A program made the position numbers and the translations under genes. Shown piece after piece: positions 1 to 62,230 of a stretch of 64,000 nt of DNA. This DNA comes from an uncultured Pirellulaceae bacterium (GTDB lineage Bacteria > Planctomycetota > Planctomycetia > Pirellulales > Pirellulaceae), in assembly GCA_937928215.1 (NCBI GenBank), contig CALFWL010000020.1, positions 50,518 through 114,517 of the forward strand, given 5' to 3'. The notes beneath the pieces were generated by a model, which worked only from the letters and a program-made list of their open reading frames with translations, made no database searches and had not been told where the DNA came from. Position 1 is the first letter of the stretch. Each line of letters starts with the position of its first letter.

Positions 1-1557
1 TGCTCCAGTGACGTCCTGCAGATCACCTTGCAACACCACTCCATTCGATTGAGATTTAATTTCTAGGTTTTTCAACCGATGTCGAATCAGCTGCAATTTT
101 GCATCCAGCTGTCGGAGTTTTAGTTCCGCAATCTTTGTTTCTGCCGCGTCTCGTGCGGTACGACTCACGTCACGTTGTTTGGTGGCCGATTGCTGCTGAG
201 CGAGCACGTCCACCATTTCAAGCTGTACCTCTCGATCGTCCATCCGAGCGATCACTTGGCCCGCAGCAACGATGTCGCCCGGTTTGGCGTAGGATTGCTC
301 AAGAACTCCATTGTGTGGAGCGACCGCAAACTGTCGCTTCGCAGGTTTCAAAACACAGCTGCAATCGATTCGATGCGGGATAGGAATTAACATGGCGAGC
401 GTGATCGTCGCGGCGACGGCAGCAGTCACTTTTGCGGCCCTGCCTTTGATGAAGTTTCGCGACCAAGTCACCAGTCGTCGCGCGGGACTTGCCGCCGCCC
501 GTCGCGCCACATCCAACGAATCGGCGAGATAAGTACTGGCGGTTCTGGCGAATTGAGCCGTGCGGTCTTGATGCGGTCCGCCAGCTGGAAGCAGACACAG
601 CCACGCTCCAATCGTGCGCCCGTCATGCGTCGTTAACGGAGAAGTCACCAGAGCGGAACTCGGGTTGTTGTCGATCATTTCGCGGTGAGCCAACTTCATG
701 CTGCGACGAGAATCATCGACCGAGGGGAATGAAGTCGTGTCTCCCCGGACCAGTGACTCTTCCATGGCGGCCTTGATTTGTTTTGGCAAAGCGCCTGTCG
801 AACTGACCTCCATCGCGCCCGACATAGATGCGACTTTGACGCGCAAACTCCCCTCACGAACGACGTAGCCGATCGCGATGATTTCGGCGCTCAAGAACCC
901 AGCCAGACGATTCGCGGCAACAATTTCAGGTCGGGCTTGATGCTTGACACTCGATACCTCCGCGGTTAATTCCGCGATTGCGGCAGTGGCATCAATTTGC
1001 CACGTAAGACTCTGGGTACGTTCACGTTCGTGCCAACGACTGACATAGGCCGCAATCATTTGCAGGATTAACAAGAATGATGCTGACGATTCACTTCCCA
1101 TACTAAGCGCCAAGCACAGACATTCGCCGGCCTGGCTGGGGTTTCTTGGATCGTAAACAGGGGTGGCAATGACCGTTAGTTCGCCCGAGGTGACGATCTG
1201 CGGTGCGACTGATTTGATGGCCGCCTCTGCGGTTGGTAAAAGCGACGATTTCATCAGGCCAAGGTTTTGGTTTTCAACTCCGCTGTGTTCGGCGACATAT
1301 TGGATGGGTTGCTGATCGGTGATGCTCAAATGGCCTGCCCAGATTGCATTGGTCGATCGACATGCCACGTCGACCAATCGTTGCAGGGTATCAGTCCGAG
1401 AAGCATTCAGCGCCGTGATCGATTCAAGCTGATGCTGAATTGAATCAAGCGTTGGGTCTTCCGTCGGGGAGGGAGACCGGTTGGCGGCGGATGACTGACA
1501 TGTGCGCAGCTTTGTCCTAGGCGTCGGCTGATGGCTGTTGGGCAGAGTGGGGTTCAT
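1..1557 (-). CDS. HlyD-family periplasmic adaptor (membrane fusion protein) fused to a long N-terminal cytoplasmic GAF-like region; partial, 3' end runs off the window
   Basis: Absent from the supplied ORF track because it has no stop codon in the window. My own minus-strand translation from ATG 1557-1555 gives MNPTLPNSHQPTPRTKLRTCQSSAANRS..., with an in-frame upstream TAG at 1671-1669. About 330 aa contain two GAF-like segments, followed by one hydrophobic span (AAKVTAAVAATITLAMLIPIP). Next come a lipoyl-like hairpin (EQSYAKPGDIVAAGQVIARMDDRE), a coiled coil and IKSQSNGVVLQGDL, as in HlyD/MFP proteins. The small plus-strand ORFs at 99-969 lie inside it. Confidence 0.75.
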   Translation of the reverse strand, partial: MNPTLPNSHQPTPRTKLRTCQSSAANRSPSPTEDPTLDSIQHQLESITALNASRTDTLQRLVDVACRSTNAIWAGHLSITDQQPIQYVAEHSGVENQNLGLMKSSLLPTAEAAIKSVAPQIVTSGELTVIATPVYDPRNPSQAGECLCLALSMGSESSASFLLILQMIAAYVSRWHERERTQSLTWQIDATAAIAELTAEVSSVKHQARPEIVAANRLAGFLSAEIIAIGYVVREGSLRVKVASMSGAMEVSSTGALPKQIKAAMEESLVRGDTTSFPSVDDSRRSMKLAHREMIDNNPSSALVTSPLTTHDGRTIGAWLCLLPAGGPHQDRTAQFARTASTYLADSLDVARRAAASPARRLVTWSRNFIKGRAAKVTAAVAATITLAMLIPIPHRIDCSCVLKPAKRQFAVAPHNGVLEQSYAKPGDIVAAGQVIARMDDREVQLEMVDVLAQQQSATKQRDVSRTARDAAETKIAELKLRQLDAKLQLIRHRLKNLEIKSQSNGVVLQGDLQDVTGA

Positions 1558-1634
1558 TGGCGCGTTTAGCGTTCTAAGAAGTTTGCAACCGCTTTTCGAT
1601 TGCGCGTCGTACGTGGACTCGGGTTCAATTGCAA

Positions 1635-1991
1635 CTAACCTTTGATGGAAGCACTCATTCGCGGCAAACTAGCCTGCGGGACGGTTGAATCGTCCGAGCG
1701 AGACGGGGATGAAACTTTTTGCTGAATCAGTTCTTGTCGGCGATCGATGACCTCGTTCAAGATTTTTGTGAGTCGCTCAACGGCTGACCAAGGCATCGCC
1801 AGCCGAGTGTGAATCGGAAGTGACTCGCCCTGTTGAGTCGCGGTATCAGCCGGCAGCGTGCCGGAAGAGAAATCGAGCAACAGCTCCTCGGTGCTCGGAC
1901 TGGCAAGGAATTGAGTCGCGTAAATGACTTCCGATTTCTCATACCGGATCGAGATTTTTTTGGTGGATTTTTGATCTTGTGGTTGAGGCAT
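1635..1991 (-). CDS. small cytoplasmic protein, DUF3467-like (function unknown)
   Basis: 118-aa ORF with no signal peptide or TM segment. The pattern IYATQFLASPSTEELLLDFSS...PIHTRLAMPWSAVERLTKILNEVI resembles the DUF3467 signature (YAN..., EF.LDF, R..msp..ak.L...L) as I remember it. It sits in the same-strand operon, 73 nt downstream of the HlyD gene and 77 nt upstream of the GAF-HlyD gene. Confidence 0.5.
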   Translation of the reverse strand: MPQPQDQKSTKKISIRYEKSEVIYATQFLASPSTEELLLDFSSGTLPADTATQQGESLPIHTRLAMPWSAVERLTKILNEVIDRRQELIQQKVSSPSRSDDSTVPQASLPRMSASIKG

Positions 1992-2064
1992 TGGAGCTCC
2001 GTGGGGATTGGAAGGATAATGTAGCTTGCGAGCCGATCACTCGAACGTGGTGACGTTGAAGTTT

Positions 2065-2937
2065 TTACTTAAACTGAATGAACCGATTTGCTTCGCCATT
2101 GGCGGTCGACGCCTCGGCTTCGTTAAGGATGCATCGCAACCCACTGCGAAAATTTCCGTGACGGTTGTCCAACCGCAACTCGACGCGGACGGTGCCGCTG
2201 TTCGAATCCGTGACGGGAGCGATAAAGTCGATGGTTGCCGTCGTGTTCTGATTGGTGGCTGGAATTGAAACACGTGCACGCCCACCCTGCTTCATTTTCG
2301 CCGCCTGTTGCGTCGTCAAGAAATATCGAACCTTTAGCTGGTCTAACTGAGCGATGGTTGCAACATGGCTTTCGACGGTCGTGACGGCCTCGCCTTCATG
2401 GTGTGGCAGCGTCAATACGACACCGTCATTTGGCGCTAGGATGATTCGACGTTCGATCTGCGTTTGAATTTTCCTCATTTCAATTTCGTAGCCGAGAAGT
2501 TCATCCGTCGCCGTGTTCACGTCGGCGTTGGCAAGATCATACTCAAGTTGAGCCTGTCTGACTTCTTTGCCGCTGGCGTGATTCTTCTCCAGCAGTGCGT
2601 TCATTTGCGAGAGATGGTGTTCGGCATTTTTGAGCTTCGCCTGAGCAGCTTCCAGCTTCCCACGCGATTCGAGCTTCAGTTTTGCGGCTAACAACGCCAC
2701 CTGAAGCACCTCGGTGTCTAACCGGCAAATCACGTCACCTGCTTTGACGGTTGAACCTTCACCAACTTCGATTGATTTGATGACGCCTGATTCAGGCGAC
2801 GCTACGTGTACCGTTTTGAAAGGCTCGATGAACCCTTCGTCGGAAGCGGGCGATTGGGCAGCCAGCTGATGCCCAAACATCACCAACACGAGCATGGTCA
2901 GGGTTAAAACAAGAGCTAGATTTCGTATCGTTTTCAT
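2065..2937 (-). CDS. HlyD-family secretion protein / periplasmic adaptor subunit
   Basis: N-terminal signal anchor (MKTIRNLALVLTLTMLVLVMF), lipoyl motif (SPESGVIKSIEVGEGSTVKAGDVICRLD), long coiled coil and beta-barrel motif (IILAPNDGVVLTL). I placed the start at ATG 2937, which forms an ATGA overlap with the stop of the SecA-like gene (2934-2937). The ORF track extends to 2973. Confidence 0.85.
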   Translation of the reverse strand: MKTIRNLALVLTLTMLVLVMFGHQLAAQSPASDEGFIEPFKTVHVASPESGVIKSIEVGEGSTVKAGDVICRLDTEVLQVALLAAKLKLESRGKLEAAQAKLKNAEHHLSQMNALLEKNHASGKEVRQAQLEYDLANADVNTATDELLGYEIEMRKIQTQIERRIILAPNDGVVLTLPHHEGEAVTTVESHVATIAQLDQLKVRYFLTTQQAAKMKQGGRARVSIPATNQNTTATIDFIAPVTDSNSGTVRVELRLDNRHGNFRSGLRCILNEAEASTANGEANRFIQFK

Positions 2938-4970
2938 TGGTAGTTCACCGCTTTTTTGACGTCGTCCAGCCATAACTCTTCTCGCATCACGTTCTCGCGT
3001 TGTTTTTGGCTTTCTTTCTCAGCGGTCTGCTGAGCTTTCGAGATTTGTTTATCAAACGATGGATTAGGTTGTCCGTCACGGCTTGCACATAGACTGGCAA
3101 GAACCCTCTCCAGCGAGGTGGCAAAACGTTTCACGATTTCGTCGTCGGCAGAAACGAAGAACTGTCCGCTGCCCGGATCACCTTGCCTGCCCGCGCGTCC
3201 GAGAAGTTGTCGATCAATTCGCCGTGAGTGGTTTCGTTCGAACCCTATCACGTGCAAACCACCTGCACCCAGGGCACCGTCTTGCAAGTTAATGTCCGTG
3301 CCTCGCCCAGCCATATTTGTTGCCACGGTGATCGCGGCAGGTCGGCCTGCGGCTGCAATCAGTAGCGCTTCGTCAGCATCTTGGACTCCATTGAGTACTT
3401 GGTGAGGAACCGCTTGCTGAGCCAATGCTTGGGAGATTTGAAGGGTTTGCTGGATCGTTCGCGTGCCAATCAGAATGGGCTGCCCGGACTGATGGCGGGT
3501 AACGGCGTCCGTGACGACAGCCGAAATCTTCCGGCGTTCGCTCGAAAAATATCGTGTTGGGATTTCGCATTGTCTGGACTGCTTTCTGCGTGGGATCGCC
3601 ACGACCGGCAATTGATAACAGCTGAACATTTCCCTTTGATGCCCTGAAACGGTTCCGGTCATCCCACAGAGCAGGCCGTATCGCTGGAAATAGCGTTGTC
3701 GCGAGATCCGAGCCAGTGTTCGTTTTTCTTCCGTGATTTCAACGCCTTCCTTCGCTTCGACGGCTTGGTGCAGGCCGGCTCGCCAGTTCCGGTCGCTAAA
3801 AATTCGCCCCGTGTATTCGTCAACGATTTTGACTTTTCCGTCGTGAACGATGTAGTTGATGTCACGTCGCATCGTGTGCTGAGCACGTAATGCTGATTCA
3901 ATGTACTGTTGCCATGGACGAACAAGGTGGTTCGACGATAGTTGCTGGTCAACCAGCACTTGAGCCATGTCAAGGTCCGCCAACATGTCAAAAGTGGCTC
4001 TTGGTTCAGGGACGTGGTTTGGCGGAACAGCGTGAATTGTTTCTGAACCCGCTTGCGTCAGGAAAACAGTTTTTGCTTGATCATCAACAACAAAGTCATG
4101 ATCTCGTTGAAGGTCTAAGGCGATCTCATTTGCTCGATGGTAGTGCTGTTTAACGGCGGAGCTCTTGAGTTTATTTAGCGAGCCAGAACTAAGCACCAAA
4201 GGTGTGGTGGCTTCGTCGATTAGAACGCTGTCAATTTCGTCAATGATCGCCACCGCGTGGCCTCGTTGGCAGTGGTTGGGGCGGACTTTATCTTGTGAGA
4301 AAAGTTGGCGTTTTAAGTTCTCTCCCAAACGATCGGGGCCGCGTGACATCAAAGAGATTTGATCGCGTAAAAAGTCAAATCCAAACTCGTAGCCTGTCGA
4401 AAAGGTCACGTCGCAAGCATAAGACTTGCGTTTCGCATCAGCTGACTCACCATCGTTAGAAATGCCAACCGTCAGCCCTAGCAACTGTAGCGCGGGAGCC
4501 ACGAACTCAAAATCTCTCTGCGTTAAGTATCCATTGACCGTAGCGACATGAACGCCCCGCCGTGTGAGCGCGTGAGCGACGATCGGGAAAGTGCTGGTCA
4601 GAGTTTTGCCTTCTCCCGTTTGCATTTCCACGATGGCTCCGCGCGACATTGCGATACCGGCCAGCAACTGCACGTCGTACGCAGTCATCCCAGAGGTGCG
4701 AATCAGGGCTTGCTTAGCCAGTGAAAGCGACCTGACCAAGACGTGGTCGGCCATCGCCTTTTGAGGTAACTGAGCAACTTCGTCTTGGAGTAAGCCAATT
4801 TGTTCACGCAGTCCCTGATCGCTTGTCGACGCAAGCGAGTCGCATCTCTCGTTGATGGATTGAAGCAGGCGATGATCCGCCGCGGTCGGCGCGTGACAAC
4901 GCGTCGCAAGCATGTCTCGCACGCTTGTGTAGTTCTTTTTTTTGAGAGACTGGGTTTTGAACATGGTCAT
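2934..4970 (-). CDS. SecA-family ATPase paralog, C-terminally truncated (NBD1-PPXD-NBD2 plus start of the scaffold helix only)
   Basis: Walker A MQTGEGKT; Walker B / SecA box AIIDEIDSVLIDEATTPLVLSSG; VATNMAGRGTDI; GGLHVIGFERNHSRRIDRQLLGRAGRQGDPGSGQFFVS. These all align to E. coli SecA motifs. The protein is 678 aa against about 900 aa for canonical SecA and ends about 75 aa after the RQGDxGS motif. There is a 14-nt gap to the upstream TolC-like gene and a 4-nt overlap with the downstream HlyD gene. Confidence 0.9.
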   Translation of the reverse strand: MTMFKTQSLKKKNYTSVRDMLATRCHAPTAADHRLLQSINERCDSLASTSDQGLREQIGLLQDEVAQLPQKAMADHVLVRSLSLAKQALIRTSGMTAYDVQLLAGIAMSRGAIVEMQTGEGKTLTSTFPIVAHALTRRGVHVATVNGYLTQRDFEFVAPALQLLGLTVGISNDGESADAKRKSYACDVTFSTGYEFGFDFLRDQISLMSRGPDRLGENLKRQLFSQDKVRPNHCQRGHAVAIIDEIDSVLIDEATTPLVLSSGSLNKLKSSAVKQHYHRANEIALDLQRDHDFVVDDQAKTVFLTQAGSETIHAVPPNHVPEPRATFDMLADLDMAQVLVDQQLSSNHLVRPWQQYIESALRAQHTMRRDINYIVHDGKVKIVDEYTGRIFSDRNWRAGLHQAVEAKEGVEITEEKRTLARISRQRYFQRYGLLCGMTGTVSGHQREMFSCYQLPVVAIPRRKQSRQCEIPTRYFSSERRKISAVVTDAVTRHQSGQPILIGTRTIQQTLQISQALAQQAVPHQVLNGVQDADEALLIAAAGRPAAITVATNMAGRGTDINLQDGALGAGGLHVIGFERNHSRRIDRQLLGRAGRQGDPGSGQFFVSADDEIVKRFATSLERVLASLCASRDGQPNPSFDKQISKAQQTAEKESQKQRENVMREELWLDDVKKAVNYQ

Positions 4971-4984
4971 CAGAACGTTGTTAT

Positions 4985-6868
4985 TTACTCGCCTGACACA
5001 AGCGGAGACGTGAGCGAGTCCGCAGTGTTTTCGTCGACACTCATGTTGGTGTATTCAGCCCCGAGACGGCGCGAATTGACATGATCGAAAGCGTTCGTCT
5101 TCGAAAGGATCTTGGTGGGCAGACCATCGACGCAGGCGACGGCGTCTTCGACTTGCTCGTGTTGCAGCAGTGTCCCGGTGGCTCGTTTCAAATTCATCAA
5201 GGCGAGGTTGTAAGTCGTTTCGGATTTCGCGAACTCGAACTCGGATTCAGTAAGCTGGGCTTGAGCCTGCAAAACGTTGTCGAGGTAAAGCCCGACGTTC
5301 GAATCGCGACCGGGGATTGCCGCCCAACGTTGCTCAAGATTTTCGAGTCGTTTTGAGGCGGCCTGCATCGCATGGTACTTCGCCTTAAACTCTCGTTCTG
5401 ATGTGCGAACTTCGCGAGCAGCCACTTTCGTCTCCATCAGCAACGTTTCCACGGTCGTGCGGAACTGGTTCTGTAGTTGCCGCAGTTCCAAGCGTCGCCG
5501 GTTCAAACGTGCACGAGCAGCCCGGTTCTGGACTGGGATTTCGTAATTAAGTCCCACGGAGTAGCCGGGCTCGCCGGTCCGGAACTGGTCCACCCACGCT
5601 CCACCAATGTTGCTGTTGCCTCGCAAGCCTGCGACGTAAGTCTCAAAGACTAAGTCCAATTGTGGCATGAGCTCATTCTTGGACATGTTCAACCGCACGC
5701 ACGCAGCCCGCATCTGCTTGATGGACTGATTGACTTCGGGTCTCATTTGCAATGCCGTCGAGAGAATTTCACCGATTTCAAGCGGCTCTGTCTGCCGAGT
5801 TGGGTTGACCGATGGGATGATTTCGAGATTGACGGTGTTCGCGAGTTCGGGATCGTTAACCAACGCGTGGATTCGTTCTTGGGCGTTACGGACGGCCATT
5901 TCTGACCGGACCAAATCCGCTTTGCGTTCGGTGACTGCGGCTTCGACCCGTACGACTTGGCTCCCCGCAATGTCGACACCCATGCGGCCTCGAAGGTCGT
6001 TCAAAATCTTTTCGGCTCGCAGGTACAGTTGCTGTTTCTGCACAAGCGAGACTCGCTCCAGATACAGCGACCAGTAGGCGCGTGTGACTTCAAGCAGATG
6101 AGACTGAAGTTGCCTAGAAAATTCGTCACCTGCAATGCTCGCATCAATTTTTGCTAGGACAATCAGGCTTGTGTTGTAGACTTGGCCTCGTCCTCGCATC
6201 AGTGGCTGGATATAGCCCAACCGGATTCGAGAAGTTCCTTGATTGTTGGGTTGGAAGAACGTTGAATTGGTGTTTTGGAATCCAAGCTCTTGGGAGATAT
6301 TAAACTGACCGCCACTGATGTTTTTACGACGGACACCGCCACTGTAGGACCAGTGATTGTCACGGAATCGAGGTGAGCCACCGGTCGTCAAAACGTTACC
6401 AACCGGGTCACTCAAATCGTCCCACCGTGTGTTGATGAACGTACGCCAATCAAAAGCAGCATCCGCTTCGACGATCGCGGTTTGTCGGATGAACGGTAAG
6501 TCGCTGAAAACCTTGACCTGTGCTGAGCTTTCAAGAGTCCTAACGATTAAGTCTTCAAGGTCCACGATTGCCGGCGTGGTCCCCGTTTGCAATCGATTGC
6601 TCATTGCTTGTTGCCACCACGGTTGAAAACCGTCAGGTATTTCGTCGATCGCGACCAACGACTGTCGTTCGGTGGCATCCGATTCAGCCGCCACTTGAAT
6701 TCGCGAGTGGTACTCGGCGACACTTGCGGAAGCCCCTGCCTGAGCGAAGCTCGTCCTGTTGCAGCACACGACGGTCAGCACGCTGACGATCGCAATCATT
6801 CGGTGGCAGCCTCGCGGCAAGGCATCACCGCGTGTCGAAAAACCGGTGTACATAGGGTCAACATCCAT
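4985..6868 (-). CDS. TolC-like outer membrane efflux protein (OEP family), paralog 1
   Basis: Two OEP-type repeats, for example FDWRTFINTRWDDLSDPVG...GGQFNISQELGFQNTNSTFFQPNNQGTSRIRLGYIQPLMRGRG...YWSLYLERV and, in the second half, VGLNYEIPVQNRAARARL. The signal-peptide-like MIAIVSVLTVVCCNRTSFAQA suggests the true start may be ATG 6799. Confidence 0.85.
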   Translation of the reverse strand: MDVDPMYTGFSTRGDALPRGCHRMIAIVSVLTVVCCNRTSFAQAGASASVAEYHSRIQVAAESDATERQSLVAIDEIPDGFQPWWQQAMSNRLQTGTTPAIVDLEDLIVRTLESSAQVKVFSDLPFIRQTAIVEADAAFDWRTFINTRWDDLSDPVGNVLTTGGSPRFRDNHWSYSGGVRRKNISGGQFNISQELGFQNTNSTFFQPNNQGTSRIRLGYIQPLMRGRGQVYNTSLIVLAKIDASIAGDEFSRQLQSHLLEVTRAYWSLYLERVSLVQKQQLYLRAEKILNDLRGRMGVDIAGSQVVRVEAAVTERKADLVRSEMAVRNAQERIHALVNDPELANTVNLEIIPSVNPTRQTEPLEIGEILSTALQMRPEVNQSIKQMRAACVRLNMSKNELMPQLDLVFETYVAGLRGNSNIGGAWVDQFRTGEPGYSVGLNYEIPVQNRAARARLNRRRLELRQLQNQFRTTVETLLMETKVAAREVRTSEREFKAKYHAMQAASKRLENLEQRWAAIPGRDSNVGLYLDNVLQAQAQLTESEFEFAKSETTYNLALMNLKRATGTLLQHEQVEDAVACVDGLPTKILSKTNAFDHVNSRRLGAEYTNMSVDENTADSLTSPLVSGE

Positions 6869-7037
6869 GTCTGGCGGGAAAGCGCGTGTTGAAGAGCACG
6901 CGTGGAAAAGACACGATCCTTGTGTCTACGGTTTCATTCGGTTGGCAGAATGAAGCCGGCCATGCGATGGCACACAGCGCTGTGCAAATTCGTTGCACGG
7001 ATTCTGTGACCTTGTCGTTAAATGCTGGTCGCAACGA

Positions 7038-7667
7038 TTACAAGACGCGACTGATGTCGAAGTTCACCGAGTTTAACAATCGTATCAGCTGAGCGGTAGA
7101 ATCGACTTCCATCTTTTCGAAGGTACGGCTTTGATGCCGCGATGCGGTTGGCACGGTCACACCAAAGTGTCGTGCGATTTGCTTCAGTGATTGGCCCTCG
7201 AACACCAATGGCAAGAACTCACGTTCACGATCGGTAAGCGATGAAATGAGCGATTGAATTCTTCGCTTTTCGGCGCGAGCCGAGTGTTCACGTCGTGAAA
7301 CGTCTAAGGCGCGTTCGACTCTTGCCGCTAGCACTTTGCCATCGACGGGTTTTTCAAGAAGATCGATGGCTCCATTTCGCAATGCACGCGTGGCCGAAGA
7401 AACGTCTACATCGCCAGAAATAAAAATAATGGGCGTCGGCATGTTGCGGTCGATCAACATCTGCTGAAGCTCAAGGCCATCAATCGCTGGCATACGAAGA
7501 TCGAGCAAAAGACAACAGACGACACTCTCGTCCAAGGTGTTAAGCCAGTGAACGGGAGACTTGAAGCATGTTATCTTGAAGCCTTTTGATTCGAGCAAAA
7601 ACTTAAGCGATTCGCGTGCGGCATCATCGTCGTCGATCAGGTACACGGCCTCGTTGGATCGTTGCAT
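7038..7667 (-). CDS. two-component response regulator, FixJ/LuxR family (REC + LuxR-type HTH)
   Basis: REC motifs VYLIDDDDAARESL, LLLDLRMPAIDGLEL and DLLEKP. LuxR HTH: LTDREREFLPLVFEGQSLKQIARHFGVTVPTASRHQSR. I placed the start at ATG 7667 (MQRSNEAVYLIDDD). The ORF-track start at 7748 adds 27 non-homologous residues. Confidence 0.9.
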   Translation of the reverse strand: MQRSNEAVYLIDDDDAARESLKFLLESKGFKITCFKSPVHWLNTLDESVVCCLLLDLRMPAIDGLELQQMLIDRNMPTPIIFISGDVDVSSATRALRNGAIDLLEKPVDGKVLAARVERALDVSRREHSARAEKRRIQSLISSLTDREREFLPLVFEGQSLKQIARHFGVTVPTASRHQSRTFEKMEVDSTAQLIRLLNSVNFDISRVL

Positions 7668-8053
7668 CGTTGCACTGCCAGTCGAAAGGGGAAGGGAGAA
7701 AGCAAGTGCGGGGGGGTAGACCGCCATGATAACAAATTCGAATAACAAAAAAAAGTGCGTATTGATTAATGGCTCAACGCTTCAACGCTTGCAAATAAAT
7801 CAGGCGCGGGATGAAAAACAATTCGTGGCCGATTTTTCAGGAGTAAAACTGGCATCAGGCGAACGCTCATCCAGTCAACCATGCGTGGCGCGGGCTGAAT
7901 CTGTTCACTCGGATAGCGGAAGACTCTCGAACGTCGACATAACAACGCAAAAGAGAGTTCACCGTTCTTGGGCATGCGAAGGAGGGATTTTGGAGGCGGT
8001 TCCCTAGCGATCTTGCCACGTTTGGATCGTGCGACCGGTTACCGGTTAACCGT

Positions 8054-9358
8054 TCACTTGAATTCTGGTAGTTCAATCGTGAATAAGGCACCCTCTGGTT
8101 GATTGGGCTCGGCTCGAATCGTTCCATCAAGGGAGCGCATAATCGAGCGACAAATCGATAGTCCTAGCCCTAGTCCCGTGGGAGAGTCTGTTTCAAATGG
8201 TTCAAAAAGCTTGGAAGGATCGGCTGAAAATCCGCAGCCATTGTCTCCAAAAGTAATCTTCACGATTGAGTCGACCTGCCGGGTAGAGACCTGAATGATG
8301 CGGCTTTTAGTATTCTGGCGGAGTGCCTGAATCGCATTGGCCAGCAGGTTAACCCAAACCTGTTCCAATTGAATTCGGTCGGCTGCCACTGTTAACTGTT
8401 TGGGACAAAGATCCAAGCTTATTTCAACTTGCATTTCCGCCAGCGACGGCCCCATCAGCGCGAACGCTTCGTGCACGGTGTCGTGAATTTTTACTCGCGT
8501 CTTATTGATCGGTTTGTTCTCGGCCATCCGGCGCAGACGCTTGACGATGGCGGAGGCGCGTCTTGCTTGATCTTCTGCCTTGACAATCACGGCCTCGAAC
8601 GTTTCCAGCCCTTTTGCTCCCTCCCCAATACTAGCGCGACAACCACTGAGGTAGTTTGCGACTGCTCCGAGTGGTTGATTGAGCTCATGGGCCAATTGGC
8701 CTACGATTTCACCCAGCGTTGAAATGCGCCCGTAGTGGTTCAATGCTTGTTCCCGCTGGCGCAATTGCCGCTCCATCCGTTTCTGGTTGCTAATGTCACG
8801 CCATGCAGACCGACTGTAGAGAATTTCTCCCTGTTCATTTCGAACAGCAGTGACCTTGAGACTTACGTCCAGTGCCGTGCCGTCTTTACGCCTGAGAACT
8901 AATTCGGTTTCACGGACCTCCCCGTGTTTCACGAAAGTCTTAAATGCAACGATGACTCCGTTATGGCACGTTGGGTGATACAGCCTCATTAAATCCCGAC
9001 CGATTACCTCGTCGCGACAGTATCCAAGACGGTCGAGTAGCGTTTGGTTGCATCGCGTAACCGTTCGCGTCTTCGGGCATACCGAAACATAAAGGTCTGG
9101 CGCATTCTCGTACAGGTCTTCGAACCGTCTCCTTTCCTCGCGCAATTGCAGTTCAGTTGAGCGATGACGTACTTCTGCTTCGGCTAGGCTTCGTTTCGCT
9201 TCTGCAAGTTGGTTTTTGAGCGAATGAACTTGATCCGTCATTGCAGGCTTGCCGTTGGCTGCTGCGCTGCAATCGGTTTCGCGATGTTGACCGGACATAA
9301 ACTGGCGACCTTGAAGAACTGAATGGATGGGAACCCATAACTCCCCAAAATATCCCAA
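8054..9358 (-). CDS. cytoplasmic PAS-domain sensor histidine kinase (FixL-like architecture)
   Basis: Coiled coil, PAS segment (DLYVSVCPKTRTVTRCNQTLLDRLGYCRDEVIGRDL), H-box LAHELNQPLGAV, N-box WVNLLANAIQAL, and G-boxes GDNGCGF and GLGLGLSICRSI. I saw no TM segment. The start is uncertain (ATG 9358, 9298 or 9241). Confidence 0.9.
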   Translation of the reverse strand: MGYFGELWVPIHSVLQGRQFMSGQHRETDCSAAANGKPAMTDQVHSLKNQLAEAKRSLAEAEVRHRSTELQLREERRRFEDLYENAPDLYVSVCPKTRTVTRCNQTLLDRLGYCRDEVIGRDLMRLYHPTCHNGVIVAFKTFVKHGEVRETELVLRRKDGTALDVSLKVTAVRNEQGEILYSRSAWRDISNQKRMERQLRQREQALNHYGRISTLGEIVGQLAHELNQPLGAVANYLSGCRASIGEGAKGLETFEAVIVKAEDQARRASAIVKRLRRMAENKPINKTRVKIHDTVHEAFALMGPSLAEMQVEISLDLCPKQLTVAADRIQLEQVWVNLLANAIQALRQNTKSRIIQVSTRQVDSIVKITFGDNGCGFSADPSKLFEPFETDSPTGLGLGLSICRSIMRSLDGTIRAEPNQPEGALFTIELPEFK

Positions 9359-9439
9359 TTATGTGTTGATCGACATCTCAATGAGTGAATCCGCATCGCG
9401 AGACCTGCTAGCGGCTTCGAAACGGAGCGGTTGCGAAGC

Positions 9440-12400
9440 TTACCTTGCGCTCGCGTTCGTCGAACTGACGTTCAATTGATAGAGATGGTTCTTCCATCCA
9501 ACTTGCAGTGGGTTATTGTTCGCTTCGTGCATCGAATTGATCGTCTCGTAAGCCGAATTTCGCTCAATGCTCTGAACGGTATCCCGTTCGCTGAAAAACA
9601 GCGACGAATGCGTTGCAGGATGGAAATATCGACGCATATTGAATCCGTCATGACGGTTTACATCCGATTGGATCGGTGCCGTTTGTTCAACATCCATGCG
9701 GTGTGGATGCTTCCAAATAACCGCATTCGGGAAGTTGGCAACCCAGTTTCCGCCGGCGTCAGCGACAACTTGCCGTTCGCCAATCACATTGCCCGCTTGG
9801 TCATAAATCCTTAGGTTTAATGTTGTGCCGGGTTCGGCCAAACCACTAAAGATCGGGTCGACCGGAATCGGCTTGAGCGTGCGATCTTCTGTTCGATCGT
9901 CATCACCGAAAAGACCACTGCGGTCACCACCAAACGGATTCGCGAAGTTGTTAAAGCTGTCAAAAGCAAACACAAGAACATCGTCTTCACGTGTCGAACT
10001 GTTGTTTGACGGATCAAGATCTGGACCGTTAAGCCCATCATCAGTGACGGTTGCTGTGTTGATAATCACATCAGCCAGTGGATCCTCAATGACGAACGGA
10101 ATGGTGACGAAGATTGTCAATGTCGCCGATCCACCACGTCCATCAAGACTTCCAACGTCCCAAATCAACTCGCCCGTTGAAGCGTCGTAGTTCACGTTGG
10201 ATGGATCGTCCGTGGTGACTTGATTACGGTCGACTACGGAAGTCGGGATCATATCCGTGACGGTCACGCCAGTACCATTTTGGTCACCGATATTGGTCAC
10301 CGTGATCGTATATTCGAATGAATCACCCACCATCGCGGTTTCGGTTAGATTGGATGTTTTCTCAATCTGATAGTCAGGCGTCGCATTCAAACCAACTGTG
10401 TTGACAGATGTGTTGTCGGTTAGATCGGGGTCTGTTCCATTGTTTCCATCATCTGTAACCGACGCACTGTTATCGAACGAACCGACAAGTTGGCCAACCG
10501 GCTCCTGAACGGTGACCGTGACGGTCAGTGTTTTGGTTCCGCCGCCACCGGCGATAGAACCGGCATCCCAAACCAGATTTCCGGTCGTTGGATCGTAAAC
10601 AACGTTCGCCGCGTCGTCAGTGACAACTGAAAAACCGTCCAACACATTGATTGGAAGTGTGTCACTCACCATGACACCCGTACCGCCCTGATTTCCGTTG
10701 TTGGTAACTTGCAGGAAGTAATTGAAAGTTTGCCCGGGAACAGCAGCCTGCGTCAGATCGTTCGTTTTCACGATTTGATAGTCAGGTTGAGCCGTTACCG
10801 TATTCACATCGTCATCCGAGTTATTGGTCGTGTTCGGATCGACGCCATTGAATGCGTCGTCCGCAACGGTAACAACATTCGTTAGACCAGCAATCCCCGA
10901 ATTCAGTGGGTTGATCACATCGGCCATGACAACAATCGTAACGGTCTCGCCCATGCCAACCGATGAGAGATTCCAAGTAATCGTACCGGCAGACATGTCG
11001 ATCGCACCGCCAGAAATTCCATTTACCGTTGCCGACACGTTCTCCAAAATATCGGTTGGGAACGTATCCGTTACCACCACGTTCTGTCCGCGAAAAGTTC
11101 CGTTGTTGGTCAGCGTGATCGTGTAGTCGATCGTTTGGCCGGGAACAACGTTACTTAGCCCATCGTCTTTGGTGATCACGTAATCTGGCGTCGCATGGTA
11201 CCCAAAATCCGTGTCATCGTTGGTTTCGTTCAGCCCAAGAGTAACACGCGTCGTGTTGTCGGTCGTCCCGTCAATGTCGAACGTTGGATTCAAACCCATC
11301 GCATCAGGCAAGTCGTTGGAATCAACGTTGACGGTGTAGTTACCTGCGATCAGGTTCGCAAAATTGTAGTTGCCGTCGCCGTCTGTTGTTTGAACTCGGG
11401 TAACATCAATCGTTCCGTCACCGTCAACATCGATTTCGAGCGTTACGTCAACTCCTGCGATTCCGCGATCGTTGTCGCTTGGATCGAACGCTCCTCCGTT
11501 GCCGCTGTAGTCGAAGAAGATCGTGTCACCGATCGAGCTATTACCACGGTAGCCAAAATCCTTGTCGTCAACGTCTTGCCCTGACGCCAGATCGTAAGTC
11601 GATGCGTTTGGCGTGCCCAATCCGTCGTCGTCATACGTCTGCGTGGTTCCCGCTGGCTGCGTCACCCGTACCGTATACCGTCCGGCAGGTAGATTATCAA
11701 AAATGTACTCCCCGTTAACGTCGGTGAGCGTCGAAAGCGTGTGGTCAATATTGCCGTCGCTGTCGTAGTCGATGTCCAGTTCAACCGTCAGCCCCGCCAA
11801 GCCAATCTCGTTTGCATCTTCGAAGCCGTCCGCATCTTGATCCCAGAATACCGTGTCACCGATTGAGCCCGTGCCCATAAATCCGAAATCGACATCATCG
11901 TTGTTACCGCCGGTGGCGGACAGCGTCACCGTTGCCGTGCCATCGTTGGTCACGCCCGTGTCATCAAATTCTTCTGTGATTGTCGTCATGCCATCGGGGA
12001 GGCTTGAGGTGTCGACCGTTAGCTCAAAATCGCCCTCAGGCAAGTGTTCAAAGCGGTACGATCCTGCCCCGTCGGTCGTTGTCGTCAGTTGAAAATCGTC
12101 ATCCGTTCCAAAGACCCCGTCTTCACCTGCAAACCCTAGAGTTACGTCGACTCCTGCGATGCCCGGTTCGCCACCGTTTTGACCACCGCTTCCGTCCGCG
12201 TCGTAGTAGATCGTGTCACCGATGGTCAACGCGCCCGTGTAACCGAAATCGATGTCGTCTCGATCGCTTCCGCCAACCGAGAATTCAGCGGTGTGAACCA
12301 ACGTGCTGGCGCCGTCATTCGTTTCCGTAGTTTGAGTCAGCCCCGTTGGCAAATCGTTGACATCCACAGCGACTCGATAATTGCCATCAGCCAGCAAACC

Positions 12401-15400
12401 AAAGTTGTACCCGCCACTCGCATCCGTCGTCGTGTTGAGCATGACGTCGTCAGTCGTGCCGAAAGCACCATCTTGTCCGGCGTACGTCAGCGTCACCGCC
12501 ACGTCACCCAACCCTGGCTCGCCAACATCTTGGTTGCCATCGCCATCGGCGTCGAACCAAACAAAGTCACCAACACTCTGCGTTCCAGCGAAACCGAAAT
12601 CGATATCGTCTTGGTTGCGTCCATTGGTTGCGTCAAGCGTCACGTTCGCCGTGCCAGAGATAGACTCCGCGCCAGCAACGCCCGTCATGTTGCCCGGCAG
12701 TTCTGCATCGGCAGCGTCGACATTGACGCGGTAATTTCCGTCAGCCAAATTGGCAAATCCGTAGCTACCGTTGGCATCGGTTTCGGTCGTCAAGCGAAAG
12801 TCATCGCTCGTGTCGAACACGCCGTCGTCACCCGCGAACTGAAGGTCAACCGTGATGCCAGCCAATCCGGGCTCGCCCGAATCCTGCACGCCATCCCCAT
12901 CGACATCATGCCACACAAAGTTTCCTATGGAACCGGCTCCGCGGAATCCAAAATCAACGTCGTCACGGTTGCTACCATTGAGCGTGATGTTGGAAGTTCC
13001 ATCAACAGCAGCCGCGCTGTCGTCGATCTCATGAGTTGGCGACATGCCTTGAGGCAAGTCCAGTGAATTGTACGTGATGCGATATTCACCGTCGGCTAGG
13101 TTATCGAACTGATAATTACCATTGGCGTCAGTGGTGTCGGTGAGTGTGATGTCATCCGCGTTGTTGAAGATGCCATCTTGTCCGGCGAAGTTCAGCGTGA
13201 CTTCTACTTCAGCCAGCCCAGGCTCATTGAGCACATCCTGAACACCGTCGCCATTACCATCGAACCATAGCCGATCGCCCAAGCTCAACGTGCCCGCAAA
13301 ACCAAAATCAACATCATCATTGGTCTCGTTATCCGCGAGTGTGACACTGACGGTGCCGCTATTAGATTCCGTTCCGCTGACGCCAACAACGCTGCCTAGA
13401 AGATCTGTGTCGGTTGTGTCAACGCTGACTTCAAAATTGCCACCGGGCAAGTTGTCGACACTGTAACGGCCATCCGAGTCGGTCACCGTTGTGAAACTTA
13501 AATCGTCATCATTTCCAATGACGCCATCGGCTCCTGCAAACACGACATTCACAGTCACATTGGCTAAACCAACATCCTCCGCGTCTTGCACTCCATCGCC
13601 GTCAACATCCAGAAAAACGAAATCACCAATCGAGCCACCGCCCGTGAAACCAAAATCAACATCGAATCGGTCACTACCGCCGATAGTGATGTTTGAAGTT
13701 CCATCGATCGCTGCAGATGAATCGTCCGTCTCCGTCGTGCCCGTCACGCCGCTGGGAAGATCTGCCGCGTCAATCTCGACGGTGTAATTTCCATTAAAAA
13801 GCTCGGTGAAACTGTAGAAGCCGTTCGCATCGGTCGTCGTATGGTAAACGACATTATCGCCAATCGTTGAAAGGTCATTGTCAGCTCCGCCGTAGGTCAA
13901 CGTCACGTCAACGTCAGCCAGCCCCTCTTCGCCTGTTTGTAATCCATCGTTATTGGCATCAAACCAGACGAAATTGCCAAGATCAGACAACGCTTCACCA
14001 AAGTCCTGATCGGTCAAACCTGCAAGCGGAACCGTTGCTGCAATCTGGTCCGGCGATGTGCTGGTGTACAGAGTCGGGTGTGTTTGGCGAAGAATATAAT
14101 CGCCCGCCGGAAGGTTGTCGAACGAGTAACTCCCGTCAGGCCGCGTCGTTGTGGTGGCGATCAACGTCGTTCCCGTCGAGTCATAAAGCTCTACCGTTAC
14201 GCCATCAATGCCCGTCGTTTCGCCCGTCTGTTGTGAGCCATCGCGATCGTTGTCAACAAATACCGTTCCTTCAATGGAAACGCCTCGTTCGCCAAAGTTA
14301 TAGTTCGTTGCGTCAACGCCAGCGTTCAACTCGATGCTCGTGATTCGATCGTTCGTTACGGTGCTGCCGTTTCCCTCTGAGCCATCCGATTCCAAGCCAT
14401 CGTTGTAGTCGGTCGGCTGAGTCTGTCGGATTTCGTACTGGTCACCCAACAATCCGCTAAAGCTGTACGTTCCGTCAGCCGCTGTATTGGTAAAGCCTAC
14501 GAAAACAGGACTTCCGCTGCTTGTGTCGTAGAGCTCAATGCGAACACTTTCGATTCCATGTTCACCATCGACGGCATCAAACGACCCGTCGTTGTCAAAA
14601 TCGTTGTAGACTCGACCGGCAATCGAGGAAGGTACATCGGTATCATCAGTCGCCGTTGCGTCAATGCCCGCCGTTCCACCATTGGTGTTGTCGTCGTCGA
14701 TGGTGGCGCTGTTGGATATCGTGTGCTGGCCAATCGGCTGTGGATCATTGACCGTCACTTGAAACGTCACGCTGCCACTGGCTCCGGCAGCAAGGTTTCC
14801 TATGTCAAACCGGAATCGCCCTCCGCCGATATCCGTCCAGTCCGCTGTGCCAGCGAACGTGGTTCCGCTCGGAACGGTTTCGATAATCTGCACACCCGTC
14901 GCATCTTGATTACCGGTGTTGGCGTAGTTCAATGTGTACGTCAGAGTGTCGTCAAGGTCTGCGTTCGCTTGTCCATCTGATTTGGTTAGCGTAAGCACAG
15001 GATTCGCGTTGACGGTGTCAGTGTCCGAGCCGGTATTGTTATTGGTCGGGTCGATGTCATCATGAGTCGCCGACGCACTGTTGGTCACGTCGTTGATGCC
15101 AGCGGCCAAACTGTTCCGTACCGAAACGGTAACTTGAAGCGTTTTGCTGGTCGTTGCGTTGATTGACCCCGCATCCCAGTTCAATTCTCCCGTGCCCGAA
15201 TCGTAAGTCACATTGGAAGCGTCGTCGGTCGTCACAGACGACAAATCAAATATGCTCCCATCCAAAAAATCTTGTACGTTGACGCCCGTTGCCGTATCGT
15301 TTCCATCATTGAAGACGACGATGTTGTACGTGTAAGTCGATCCTGGAACGACAGCCGCAACACCGTTTTCTTTTGTGATTCGCAAGTCCGGCTGGATAAT

Positions 15401-18400
15401 CGTCAAGGATTCCAGCGAAGAGTCTGCGTAGTCGTCTTCTCCGGCATTGCCACCGTCGCCATCTCTCTCGTTCCCCGAGGCTCCGTCGAGCGATGTCCAT
15501 GTCAAGTTTCCAGTGTTGTTGTAGCTGTTGCCAATGTCAGCAATGTCTGTGGTTACGTCAGCATCATACGTAATGACTAAAGCCTCGCCACTATCAAGAA
15601 GATCGAGGCCGCTGATCCTGAAGCCGTTGCTCCCAGTAACAATCGCGTAGTCGTCCACAACAGTCAGTACACTTCCTCCAAGTGTTACGCTGATGGTGCC
15701 TGTGTTCAATGTCAGGTCCTCGGGAAGCGTATCGCTGATAACTAAATCGTAAGCGTCGGTGTCGCTGGCCGCCGAGTGGTTGATCGTCAACGTATAAGTT
15801 ACCGTCTCGCCAAGATTGGGCGTGTCATTGTTGACAGCCTTCAAGATCGTCAGATCGGGTTCGATGACTTCCACCGTTGCGGCGGAAGAAGTGTTCGACG
15901 TCTCCGTGCTTCCATCCGCGGTCCACGAGAGCTGAGCCTCGTTATCAAGTGATGTTCCCGTGCCGGAGCCGTTGCCGTTGTTCCCCACGGTGTTGGTGAC
16001 GCGAACGGTGTAAGTGATCGTCAGCGTGTCAACATCGCCATTGTTGGTGTTGGCGTTGGTGACTGTACCGAGATCAAAAATATGATCGCCACCGCCCGTA
16101 GTCGGATTGAAAGTCGTCAGATCACTAAAATCACCGGTTCCGCGACTGGTCGTGATGTCCGTTGTAGCGGCTCCGTCTGATTCTGCCACAATATTGTCGA
16201 TCGAAATGAATTCGTATCCGCTGGACAGTGTATCGATCAGCTGCAACGAGGCGTACGTCCCTTCCGTTAAGGTCAAAACGACTTGGTACGTTGCGGTTTC
16301 TCCAACGACCGCCTGACTCGCACCGTTGTTGACGTTATCAACACTGGTCCCGATCAACGTCTTGGCAACCGTCGGTTCGCTAATCGCCAGTGCGGTGTTT
16401 GTCGACGAATCACTGTAGTCGTTTTCTCCAACGCCACTGCCACCACGTTCGTTTGCGTCATCCCCGTCATCTGCGTTGGCGTTATCAAGGCTGGTCCACT
16501 GAACGTTTGCCGTGTTGCTGATGATTTCACCGGGTTCGGTTTCAGCGGTTGCCAACGTTCCCGTGATCGTAATGACAACGTCTTCGCCAAAATCTAAATC
16601 GAATGATTGGCCAGCAATGGTTCGAACCGTGTTGGTGCCAGAGTCGTATTCCAATAAGGTGTCGAGATCACCTGCTGTCGAGAGCGTGGCTTGGAAACTT
16701 CCAAACGTAATTTCGTCCGGTAACGCATCGCTGAAGGTCACATCAAACGCATCGGTGTCGCTGTTGGCGGTGTGCGAGATTGTAATTTCATAGGTCACCG
16801 TATCTCCCGCGTCACCTGTCGTTGATGACGTGAGCTGTTTGTCAACATTCAAATCGGCTTCAACGACTTCAATGGCGACGGATTCACCAGCGGTTTGATT
16901 TACGCCGCTGTTCCACTGCATTCGAGCGGTGTTGTTGAGCGAATCACCAGCAGAACTTCCGTTGCCATCTGCATCGACGCTGTTCATGACTCTGACGGTG
17001 TAAGTCAGAGTGATCTGCTCAATAACGGAGTTGTCGTTGTCGCTATTGGAGATGGTTCCTAAATCAAATGTCAGACCGTAGGGAGTTGCACTACTGCCGT
17101 CTCCCGTCACGGTCGGGTTGAACGTCGCAGTCGTCGCAAAGTCGTCGCTAGCGGCATCGGTGCTGAGCGCTGCCGAAGCCACTACATTATCGAGCCTGAC
17201 GAACTCGAGGCCGGCATCAAGTTGGTCAATGATTTCGACGGTTGGTATGCCAACTTCTGGAACGTCAATCGTGATTGAGTACGTGATGAACTCGCCAATG
17301 GTCGCGTGAGCGTCCGTATTCGTCGATCCATTGTTGATGCCGGTTGAGACAATTTGCTTCAGAATGGTTGGTGCCAAAACAGTGATATTGGCAGAGTCCG
17401 TTGAAGCGTAATTATTTGGGTTGCCCGTTGACCCGTCCGCGCCCGTTCGCTCGGTGTCATCCGTGGTGTGAGCGGACTGGTCTCCCACTGCGATGTCACC
17501 GTCAATACTGTGCCACGTGACACTGGCGTTGTTCGCGATGACTTGTTCGGGCTGAACGTCAGGCGCCAATGTTCCGTCGATCTCAAGCGTGATCACACGA
17601 CCGGGGGTGGCGGCAAAGTCGATATTGCCTGTTGATTGAAGCGTCCAACCCGCTACGTTGCTTCCACTAAGAGTGAAATTAGCAGCCGTGACGATTCCAG
17701 CCGTATCAACAACGGTGAATGACGGTGACAGAATCGTCGAACTCCCGCCAAACATTGGCAAGTTGTCAACAAAACCAAGATCAAACGCGTCAACGCCGCT
17801 CGTATTGGTCAACTGGATTGTGTAGCGAATGTCATCGCCCGCATCCGCCGTCGTGCCGTCATCAAATCCGTCACCGTCGGTATCAACCGCCGCATTTTTG
17901 ACGATCGTGATTTCTGGTTCAACAACATTGACACGATTGTCCGCCGTCGCCGTAATGTTCTCCCGTGGATTTGGCGCGGTGCCCGGATCGTCATCCCAAG
18001 TGAACCGCACGCTGTTGTCCAACGTTTGAGCACTCTGGTTGGTGTTCGCGTTGGTGACGATTGCACGATAGGTGATCTCAATGGTGCCGTCAGAATCACC
18101 GGCAACGCCATCGTTTCCATCGTCGGACGTCGCATCGCTGATGGTGCCCAGCTCCCAAGTGATAACGCGTCCGTTAGACGTTACGGAATCTGGGTTATTA
18201 CCGTCTCCAGTGAAAGAAACTCCCCCCGTTGTCGTGACGTTCGTGACATCCACAAATGCCAAACCTGCATCCAACGTGTCGACCAACCGAGCGTTGTCCA
18301 TGGTGACTTCGTTCAGATTCAGTGTCACCGTATAAGTCACAATTTCGCCGATGACGGCATCGTTGGTTCCGTTGCCCGCACTGTTAATCGAAGTGCTGTC

Positions 18401-62035: not shown

Positions 62036-62230
62036 AGCTCCTTGCTGGCCTGCGTCAGTCCGACGGTTCCTTCTTGAAATTCGGCCTGATCCTGCGTCAA
62101 ATCGGCGAATCTGCTCAATAAAAAGTGGCGAACTCGGTCTCTGATGATCGATGAACATCCCCATACAACCGGCATAACCGTTAAAGTCGTACGCGAATTG
62201 CGTACGGTCAGATCGCAAGGACGCGAATCG

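Follow-up and report, generated by a model that had tools for sequence, protein, structure and literature searches.

A wingless SecA-like ATPase encoded with HlyD-type adaptors and a TolC-like outer-membrane factor in a Pirellulaceae bacterium: a candidate exporter of giant surface proteins

A computational study (Kamneva, Poudel & Ward, PLoS One 2015, PMC4452313) reported from Planctomycetes, Verrucomicrobia and Proteobacteria a gene module that joins a secondary SecA_DEAD protein to HlyD, GAF-HlyD and Peptidase_M50-HlyD proteins, and sometimes to an OEP protein. In that study the secondary SecA_DEAD proteins had lost the wing/scaffold domain and formed a clade beside actinobacterial SecA2. 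According to the proposal made there, the SecA_DEAD protein was co-opted as the ATPase, replacing an ATP-binding cassette (ABC) transporter, and the M50 transmembrane protein is a candidate inner-membrane pore (PMC4452313). We found no experimental follow-up of this module in the literature searched, and essentially no citations of it there. Here we analyze a locus of this type in a 64,000-nucleotide stretch of DNA (hereafter the window) from an uncultured Pirellulaceae bacterium (GenBank assembly GCA_937928215.1, contig CALFWL010000020.1, positions 50,518 to 114,517). The locus shares its gene set, phylum and functional hypothesis with the Kamneva module and, by sequence comparison, belongs to this secondary SecA_DEAD, type-I-related group. 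An earlier sequence-only reading of the window had regarded the architecture as undescribed and SecA as a protein not reported with membrane fusion protein (MFP) or outer-membrane factor (OMF) partners; the 2015 paper overturns both claims. The locus adds to a published module and is not a new architecture, and the functional idea is reasonable. Unlike the present analysis, the 2015 paper names no cargo, DUF3467 protein, PqqD-like or RiPP recognition element (RRE)-like domain, or conservation of a protease active site. New here are the giant genes that flank the module, the leader that they share, conserved M50 motifs together with an RRE-like domain, and a recurrent DUF3467 protein. We assign a probability of roughly 0.6 to the reading that the module is a one-step exporter, resembling a type I secretion system (T1SS), in which a SecA-like motor would drive giant surface proteins carrying an N-terminal leader across the envelope.

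Several other known systems resemble this locus in part. T1SS such as HlyB/HlyD/TolC and the C39-ABC exporters also combine an MFP with a TolC-family channel. One-step export of very large repetitive surface proteins lacking a Sec signal, known from T1SS, is what we propose for the window module, and a leader protease built into the inner-membrane component, known from peptidase-containing ABC exporters, is a second proposed parallel. Unlike T1SS, the module has a SecA homologue as its ATPase and no ABC transporter, three different adaptors in place of one, and a putative signal that is N-terminal (LE.R.LLSA) rather than C-terminal and RTX-type. Its predicted protease is an M50 metalloprotease, whereas that of the C39-ABC exporters is a cysteine protease. 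Accessory SecA2 systems (SecA2/SecY2 of streptococci and staphylococci; SecA2 of mycobacteria, Listeria and Bacillus) likewise reserve a second SecA paralog for a small range of substrates, in many cases very large adhesins. However, SecA2 keeps the scaffold, wing and finger and works with SecY or SecY2, and these Gram-positive systems have no MFP, OMF or M50 partners.

Leader peptidases of ribosomally synthesized and post-translationally modified peptides (RiPPs), namely the daptide HExxH and YydH/LiaK proteins, are homologous HExxH membrane proteases, and the PqqD-type RRE of RiPP pathways has a counterpart in orthologues of the window's M50 protein. In the window lineage, by contrast, the M50 domain is fused to a periplasmic adaptor, and its partners are a SecA-like motor and giant proteins instead of small peptides. 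Finally, wingless SecA domains occur in cis on giant proteins of Omnitrophota (West-Roberts et al., bioRxiv 10.1101/2023.11.21.568195). In these Omnitrophota and actinobacterial giants, as in the window, a SecA_DEAD domain and a preprotein-binding domain without scaffold or wing are tied to giant proteins, for which self-export has been proposed. There the SecA domain lies in cis, beside type II/IV-like secretion genes, whereas the window encodes a separate 678-aa protein in an MFP/OMF operon. By analogy, the Omnitrophota case offers an independent hint that the wingless SecA variant and giant proteins go together.

A six-gene module with a SecA-like ATPase

Domains were scored with Pfam and NCBIfam on the open reading frame (ORF) list of the window and a translation of its positions 1-1557, and on L001, a Logan contig that extends the locus. 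We re-found all five minus-strand genes at positions 1-6868 (Table 1), and the domains, coordinates and spacings given in the sequence-only reading held. The OMF and SecA paralog genes are 14 nt apart by their coordinates, the HlyD start codon at 2937 overlaps the stop codon of the SecA paralog as ATGA, and the following gaps are 73 nt (HlyD to DUF3467) and 77 nt (DUF3467 to the GAF-type adaptor). Alternative starts exist for two genes: a second open HlyD ATG upstream, at 2973, is the one picked by the gene caller on the sister contig L001, and the database gene call for the SecA paralog starts two codons later (676 aa vs 678 aa). The minus-strand intergenic gaps of the module contain no terminator-like sites, which is compatible with a single transcript without proving one.

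L001 carries the same SecA paralog, differs from the window by 10 mismatches in 12,000 bases and no indels (99.92% identity), and reaches 4,817 nt past window position 1. It adds the rest of the GAF-type adaptor, a 38-nt gap, a gene for an M50-HlyD fusion, a 97-nt gap and the start of a second giant gene. The sequence-only reading had called for such a leftward extension, with the caveat that an M50 component or an ordinary ABC exporter might lie beyond position 1. The M50 component is there, and no transporter of the ABC, resistance-nodulation-division (RND) or major facilitator superfamily (MFS) type is present in the added 4.8 kb or within window positions 1-9400. As had been claimed from the visible part, the SecA paralog is the sole nucleoside triphosphatase of the module. 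The module has six genes, which encode an OMF, a wingless SecA-like ATPase, a short HlyD protein, a DUF3467 protein, a GAF-type HlyD protein and an RRE-like/M50/HlyD fusion, and on the exporter reading the window holds its promoter-proximal part. The missing inner-membrane component is the M50-HlyD fusion, not an ABC exporter.

We compared 14 independent module loci, a small sample that was not chosen at random. The planctomycete loci (34-100% identity) are the window with L001, L082, L083, L084 (Rhodopirellula islandica), L085, L086, L097 (strain K23_9, complete genome) and L098-L100, which count as one locus. The others lie on plasmids of the Alphaproteobacteria Mesorhizobium ciceri, Rhodobacteraceae M382, Rhizobium johnstonii, Sinorhizobium chiapasense, Pseudosulfitobacter and Methylosinus. 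These were collected by tblastn, where canonical SecA dominated the matches to the first query and the Mesorhizobium paralog, used as query, ranked true paralogs first. When the loci were mapped by phmmer with the window proteins, the SecA-like, GAF-HlyD and M50-HlyD trio was found in every mapped locus, the short HlyD in most, and the OMF in most planctomycete loci; Methylosinus has a TolC gene. The neighborhood that the sequence-only reading had wished to see checked for synteny is kept at 34-100% identity across Planctomycetes and alphaproteobacterial plasmids. Gene order varies between phyla while the gene set is retained, which at the level of gene content is the signature of a functional unit. 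The recurrence of this gene set in 14 independent loci rules out a chance juxtaposition of the module genes.

If a conventional ABC, RND or MFS exporter were encoded just outside the window and the SecA paralog were a bystander, then the extended contig and the other loci should reveal the transporter. An MFP and an OMF are, after all, typical pump parts. However, L001 shows GAF-HlyD, M50-HlyD and a giant gene with no transporter, which contradicts this explanation, and none of the 14 loci has an ABC, RND or MFS gene in the module (0/14), whereas every one carries the SecA paralog. We consider a hidden transporter highly improbable.

The SecA paralog matches SecA_DEAD (3.5e-86), SecA_PP_bind (PF01043, 6.5e-28) and P-loop_SecA (8.1e-49). 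It falls below every NCBIfam SecA and SecA2 cut-off (573 vs 800 bits for secA; 385-529 vs 725-1100 bits for the SecA2 models). The paralog aligns only to residues 38-590 / 51-603 (by chain numbering) of B. subtilis SecA. It stops inside the long scaffold helix and has no helical wing domain, two-helix finger or C-terminal tail, with the boundaries of these parts taken from established SecA structures. In 30 homologues of the paralog, the Walker A motif (GEGKT), the DEID..DEA box (DEAD-type) and the arginine-rich GRAGRQG motif of NBD2 are invariant. These comparisons suggest that the paralog probably retains ATPase activity and a clamp for polypeptides, and by alignment it is without the regions through which canonical SecA is coupled to SecY, among them the two-helix finger, which inserts into SecY in established SecA-SecY structures.

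The M50-HlyD protein consists of an M50-like polytopic membrane domain fused to an HlyD domain. Among 53 homologues, H212 is nearly invariant, E213, H216 and D314 are invariant, and N306 and N308 are conserved; these residues belong to an HExxH motif and a downstream N..N....FDG motif, both within predicted helices. Against Pfam PF02163 (gathering score 27.2) the L001 protein scores 24.7 bits and the Pseudosulfitobacter orthologue 31.4 bits. The closest NCBIfam models are RiPP leader peptidases (daptide HExxH protease, E=2.6e-38; YydH/LiaK, 4e-8), with scores under the equivalog cut-offs (132 vs 300 bits). PqqD (PF05402, gathering score 23.4) matches residues 37-101 of the proteobacterial proteins, above the gathering score in two of five (28.7 and 28.9) and below it in three. 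An hhalign comparison shows that the proteobacterial and planctomycete proteins are collinear over 703 columns (E=2.6e-79). The AlphaFold2 (AF2) model (pLDDT 88) has an N-terminal domain in which beta-strand is followed by three helices, a helical membrane domain and an adaptor with an alpha-hairpin. In Foldseek, the C-terminal adaptor matches AcrA, MexA, MacA and EmrA; among the 50 matches listed for the full model, all fall on the adaptor domain and none on the RRE or M50 parts. From motifs and model, this protein seems to combine leader-binding and leader-peptidase domains with a periplasmic adaptor on one chain.

The remaining components fit an envelope conduit less specifically. The module OMF scores 50 bits against TIGR01844 (type_I_sec_TolC), far under the cut-off of 225, and its orthologues occupy the same position in L082, L083, L084, L086, L097 and L098. 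The short HlyD protein exceeds the TIGR01730 RND_mfp cut-off (131.9 vs 94.9 bits, E=2.5e-38), matches HlyD_D23/HlyD_3 at about 4e-19 and has a hydropathy maximum of 2.83 at its N-terminus. In the GAF-type adaptor, a cytoplasmic stretch of some 370 aa precedes a single transmembrane helix and an HlyD domain. The part of this adaptor visible in the window is weakly HlyD/RND_mfp-like, and the full L001 protein matches HlyD_D23 (E=1.2e-17). The HlyD half of the GAF-HlyD label in the sequence-only reading was borne out in this way; its GAF half found no match in the window protein and does find one in orthologues, above the gathering score in L086, L087, L092 and L093 and weakly in L082, L083, L085 and L098.

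The window DUF3467 protein lies slightly under the PF11950 gathering score (22.3 vs 25 bits), and all ten family members match PF11950 at E<=0.01. The gene is present in the window, L082 and L083, and NCBI annotates one in each of the Mesorhizobium and Methylosinus loci, so that DUF3467 recurs in the module across phyla. An alignment of homologues shows an invariant core, L(P/H/R)IHTRLAMPW, followed by a variable linker and an invariant C-terminal P-x-ASLP, which on its sequence looks like a short docking peptide. A SecB-like chaperone identity was not supported, with an hhalign probability of 0.15% against a hand-entered E. coli SecB sequence. A PDB profile search gave no match, and Foldseek gave none at E<=0.001 for the AF2 model (pLDDT 58).

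A few loci depart from the common arrangement. Frameshifts split the M50-HlyD gene in L086 (13890-16047, 16141-21977), the short HlyD gene in L082 (11959-12880) and the SecA-like gene in Rhizobium johnstonii (L090, 3270-5410); these could be decay or assembly errors of metagenome bins. In L086, moreover, M50-HlyD, GAF-HlyD and HlyD are present a second time in inverted orientation, and the DUF4347 gene of this locus is broken. In Pseudosulfitobacter (L092, 18950-19771), a gene that NCBI annotates as SapC-family lies between those for M50-HlyD and the SecA-like protein, and in Sinorhizobium (L091) a gap of about 900 nt, in the same place and of matching size (~19010-19915), separates these two ORFs. 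SapC is associated with the locus for type I export of the Campylobacter fetus S-layer protein.

Giant genes beside the module and their N-terminal leader motif

Upstream of the module, a PAS kinase gene and a LuxR regulator gene alone separate it from the gene for a giant repetitive surface protein, and on L001 the M50-HlyD gene is immediately followed by the start of a second DUF4347 giant. Within the fetched flanks, 11/14 module loci and 0/80 canonical secA loci have an ORF of 1,900 aa or more. The 80 control loci are among the matches listed in a contig search with the patterns MAGRGTDI and GFD[FY]LRDQ, which match housekeeping SecA too. Giant neighbors reach 10,518 aa in Mesorhizobium, 12,918 aa in Pseudosulfitobacter, 8,847 aa in Methylosinus and 11,296 aa in L085. 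Module and giant gene occur together on plasmids of Mesorhizobium, Methylosinus, Pseudosulfitobacter, Sinorhizobium and Rhodobacteraceae bacterium M382. These associations suggest that the giant surface proteins are probably the cargo of the module.

If the giants are cargo, then they might share an export signal. All eight readable N-termini of flanking giants carry, in their first 100 residues, LE[D/P/N]RxL..A after a basic stretch, and the E, R and A of this motif are invariant in the alignment (8/8). The individual leaders are KLEDRILFDA (window giant), VLEDRVLYSA (second giant, L001), GLEDRLLFSA (L085), ALENRILLSA (L086), QMEDRVLFDA (L097), ALEPRLLLSA (Mesorhizobium, L089), ALEPRFLLSA (Pseudosulfitobacter, L094) and TLEPRVLLNA (Methylosinus, L095). 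As a control, the leader regex matched once in ORFs of more than 300 aa in 1.43 Mb of control DNA. The window giant has no RTX GGxGxD repeat, and its last 999 aa have no HemolysinCabind match; the conserved signal-like element of the giants is N-terminal, not C-terminal. Directly after the leader, four planctomycete giants have a DUF4347 domain with conserved H(L/I)xxHG, LLIYGCD and DVAASDDxTG...GGDWxLEY motifs. One may speculate, from these residues, that the DUF4347 His/Cys pair is a cysteine-protease-like, self-processing dyad.

No hydrophobic core or Sec signal peptide was detected in the seven giant N-termini scored for hydropathy (all except the L086 fragment). This result bears on a two-step route, in which the SecA paralog would act as a SecA2-like motor on SecYEG to bring the giants into the periplasm, HlyD and OMF proteins would take them across the outer membrane, and the M50 protease would do no more than trim the leader. 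Such a route has precedent in Gram-positive bacteria, whose accessory SecA2 systems have very large adhesins as their dedicated cargo. The paralog is moreover an unmistakable SecA homologue with a preprotein-binding domain, the module encodes no proven channel, and its clade lies beside actinobacterial SecA2 (Kamneva et al., PMC4452313). However, the paralog has neither the two-helix finger nor the wing domain and C-terminal tail, and the cargo N-termini are without the hydrophobic core needed for SecY opening. The motor gene is also tightly coupled to MFP/OMF genes in every locus, and no secY paralog was found near the module in the mapped loci. Taken together, these points make the two-step route unlikely, if the least unlikely of the alternatives that we weighed.

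The one-step reading connects the module to an older observation. The motif RRLxxExLExRxLLA (PF07595) has been considered a planctomycete export signal since 2004, its machinery not being known, and is found on 8/10 of the longest Tuwongella proteins (PMC8567305). The planctomycete leader variants resemble this motif, and all three module-flanking alphaproteobacterial giants pass the NF012209 LEPR-XLL model (30.6-34 bits, cut-off 17). We did not retain the planctomycete giants as formal members of PF07595 or NF012209, which they match below threshold or not at all. Elsewhere in the window, 40 kb from the module, a 1,466-aa protein has an N-terminal basic stretch and LDFQTLEPRQMLA, a near-classical Planc_extracel motif that stays below the model threshold (PF07595, 15-16 bits; gathering score 25.5). 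A motif protein at such a distance is expected if a single machine serves several dispersed cargoes. In the openly searchable literature, we found no link of LEPR-XLL, Planc_extracel or DUF4347 proteins to the module. We tentatively suggest, at odds somewhat short of even, that the RRLxxExLExRxLLA/LEPR-XLL signal has in this module its long-missing, dedicated pathway of export. This would be a distinct route common to Planctomycetes and Proteobacteria, with recognition and cleavage by RRE-M50 and one-step threading of megadalton proteins by a wingless SecA through a three-adaptor/TolC duct.

A different substrate has to be weighed as well. The module might mature or export small RiPP-like leader peptides, or another small substrate, with the giants co-regulated or merely co-inherited. 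The M50 domain indeed finds its closest counterparts among the leader peptidases of RiPPs (daptide and YydH/LiaK models), and a PqqD/RRE-type domain is typical of RiPP pathways. Moreover, L098-L100 has no giant gene, and radical-SAM and glycosyltransferase genes and many small ORFs lie downstream. However, a small peptide would hardly call for a SecA-type polypeptide motor with a preprotein-binding domain (PPXD), the module contains no conserved gene for a small precursor, and both the frequency of giant genes and the motif at every readable giant N-terminus argue against it. We judge a small-substrate role to be quite unlikely.

Neighboring genes and coordinates of the window features

The gene order histidine kinase, response regulator, OMF and SecA-like ATPase is also found in L098-L100 (1-2494), a distant lineage (M50-HlyD about 35% identity). 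This suggests, from gene order, that the two-component pair is a conserved, dedicated regulator of the module. Just upstream of the window giant lies a diguanylate cyclase gene, and in L085 a PilZ gene follows the module (16279-16719); PilZ genes also follow giant genes in Omnitrophota (bioRxiv 10.1101/2023.11.21.568195). Together these genes give a hint that export or display of the giant proteins may be under cyclic di-GMP control.

Two further OMF paralogs are encoded on the plus strand (Table 1). Positions 40814-45218 (+) encode a sucrose-phosphate synthase/phosphatase fusion (743 aa) followed by an alpha-amylase-family enzyme (750 aa), in ORFs that share about 80 nt; the two probably form a cassette for sucrose or a compatible solute, with no relation to the module. 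Positions 56211-60913 (+) encode a PSCyt1/PSCyt2/PSD1 protein and then a DUF1501 protein, a classic planctomycete pair that supports a Planctomycetota origin of the window.

Table 1. Features of the module, its candidate cargo and neighboring genes. Positions refer to the window unless a contig is named.
Feature	Position	Strand	Evidence
TolC-like OMF, 627 aa (604 aa by L001 gene call), first module gene	4985..6868	-	PF02321 OEP E=1.8e-23
Wingless SecA-like ATPase, 678 aa: NBD1, PPXD, NBD2, start of scaffold helix	2934..4970	-	Pfam
Short HlyD/RND_mfp adaptor, 302 aa (290 aa from ATG 2937), N-terminal membrane anchor	2065..2973	-	TIGR01730, HlyD_D23/HlyD_3
DUF3467-family small protein, 118 aa, accessory	1635..1991	-	PF11950 22.3 bits
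GAF-type adaptor, N-terminal 519 of 635 aa in window, gene leaves window	1..1557	-	Translation; full gene L001 13408-15315
M50-HlyD fusion, 729 aa, 38 nt after GAF-HlyD gene	L001 15354-17543, beyond window position 1		Contig 99.92% identical
Giant repetitive surface protein, 4,650 aa, candidate cargo	9440..23392	-	DUF4347 E=2.7e-53, SdrD_B and DUF11 repeats
Leader motif LEDRILFDA, residues 21-29 of the giant, basic stretch before	23306..23332	-	Regex scan and alignment
DUF4347 domain, residues 87-256 of the giant, directly after leader	22625..23134	-	PF14252 E=2.7e-53; conserved HG, YGCD motifs
G8 / CEMIP beta-helix / bacterial cadherin-like protein, 1,466 aa, candidate cargo	46225..50625	-	Translation, Pfam
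LuxR-type response regulator, directly upstream of module	7038..7748	-	Response_reg, GerE
PAS histidine kinase, partner of response regulator	8054..9358	-	PAS, HisKA, HATPase_c
PAS-GGDEF diguanylate cyclase, just upstream of giant gene	23642..25348	-	GGDEF E=1.1e-41
Second OMF paralog, 743 aa, beside GGDEF gene	25647..27878	+	phmmer vs module OMF E=4.4e-93; PF02321 E=3.6e-16
Third OMF paralog, leaves window at right end	62090..64000	+	phmmer vs module OMF E=8.5e-44

Proposed mechanism and significance

On the exporter reading, the cargo would be giant proteins without a Sec signal peptide whose basic N-terminus is followed by LE(D/P/N)RxL(L/F)(S/D)A. The cytoplasmic RRE-like domain of M50-HlyD would capture this leader. 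The SecA-like motor would then hold the unfolded chain and push it step by step into an inner-membrane portal, which may be formed by the transmembrane parts of the three adaptors and chiefly by the polytopic M50 domain. The M50 active site would remove the leader, as C39 does in peptidase-containing ABC exporters, and the three HlyD-type periplasmic domains would dock onto an OMF trimer to complete the duct. Control could come from the GAF domains, from the PAS kinase and LuxR regulator next to the module and from the GGDEF protein, and DUF3467 may be an accessory factor, possibly a cargo holder or adaptor. We infer every functional step of this exporter from sequence, above all the inner-membrane conduit.

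Several points weigh against the exporter reading. Secretion, ATPase coupling, leader binding and leader cleavage are all deduced, the M50 fold is not known as a protein-conducting pore, and the inner-membrane channel is only a candidate. The sampled loci are few and non-random; L098-L100 has no giant gene within 10 kb, and the giants of L086 and L090 are only fragments or are cut by the record end. With respect to the signal, the 4,650-aa window giant matches neither NF012209 nor PF07595 and L085 reaches 11 of the 17 bits required, so that the planctomycete giants tie to LEPR-XLL/Planc_extracel by motif-level similarity. With respect to the machinery, PF05402 (PqqD) has no Pfam match in the planctomycete M50-HlyD proteins, the window-lineage adaptor has no Pfam GAF match, and the DUF3467 model is of low confidence (pLDDT 58).

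Should this mechanism prove right, SecA-type motors would work outside SecYEG as well, and, against the usual rule, a tripartite MFP/OMF conduit could run on an engine of another kind than ABC, RND or MFS transporters. The export of the largest surface proteins of planctomycetes and some proteobacteria (3,000 to 13,000 aa), which have no Sec signal peptide, would be explained too. The export motif of 2004 and the gene module of 2015 are both orphan observations, to which a machine would then be assigned. With cargo, leader, recognition domain and protease side by side, these two observations become one testable hypothesis.

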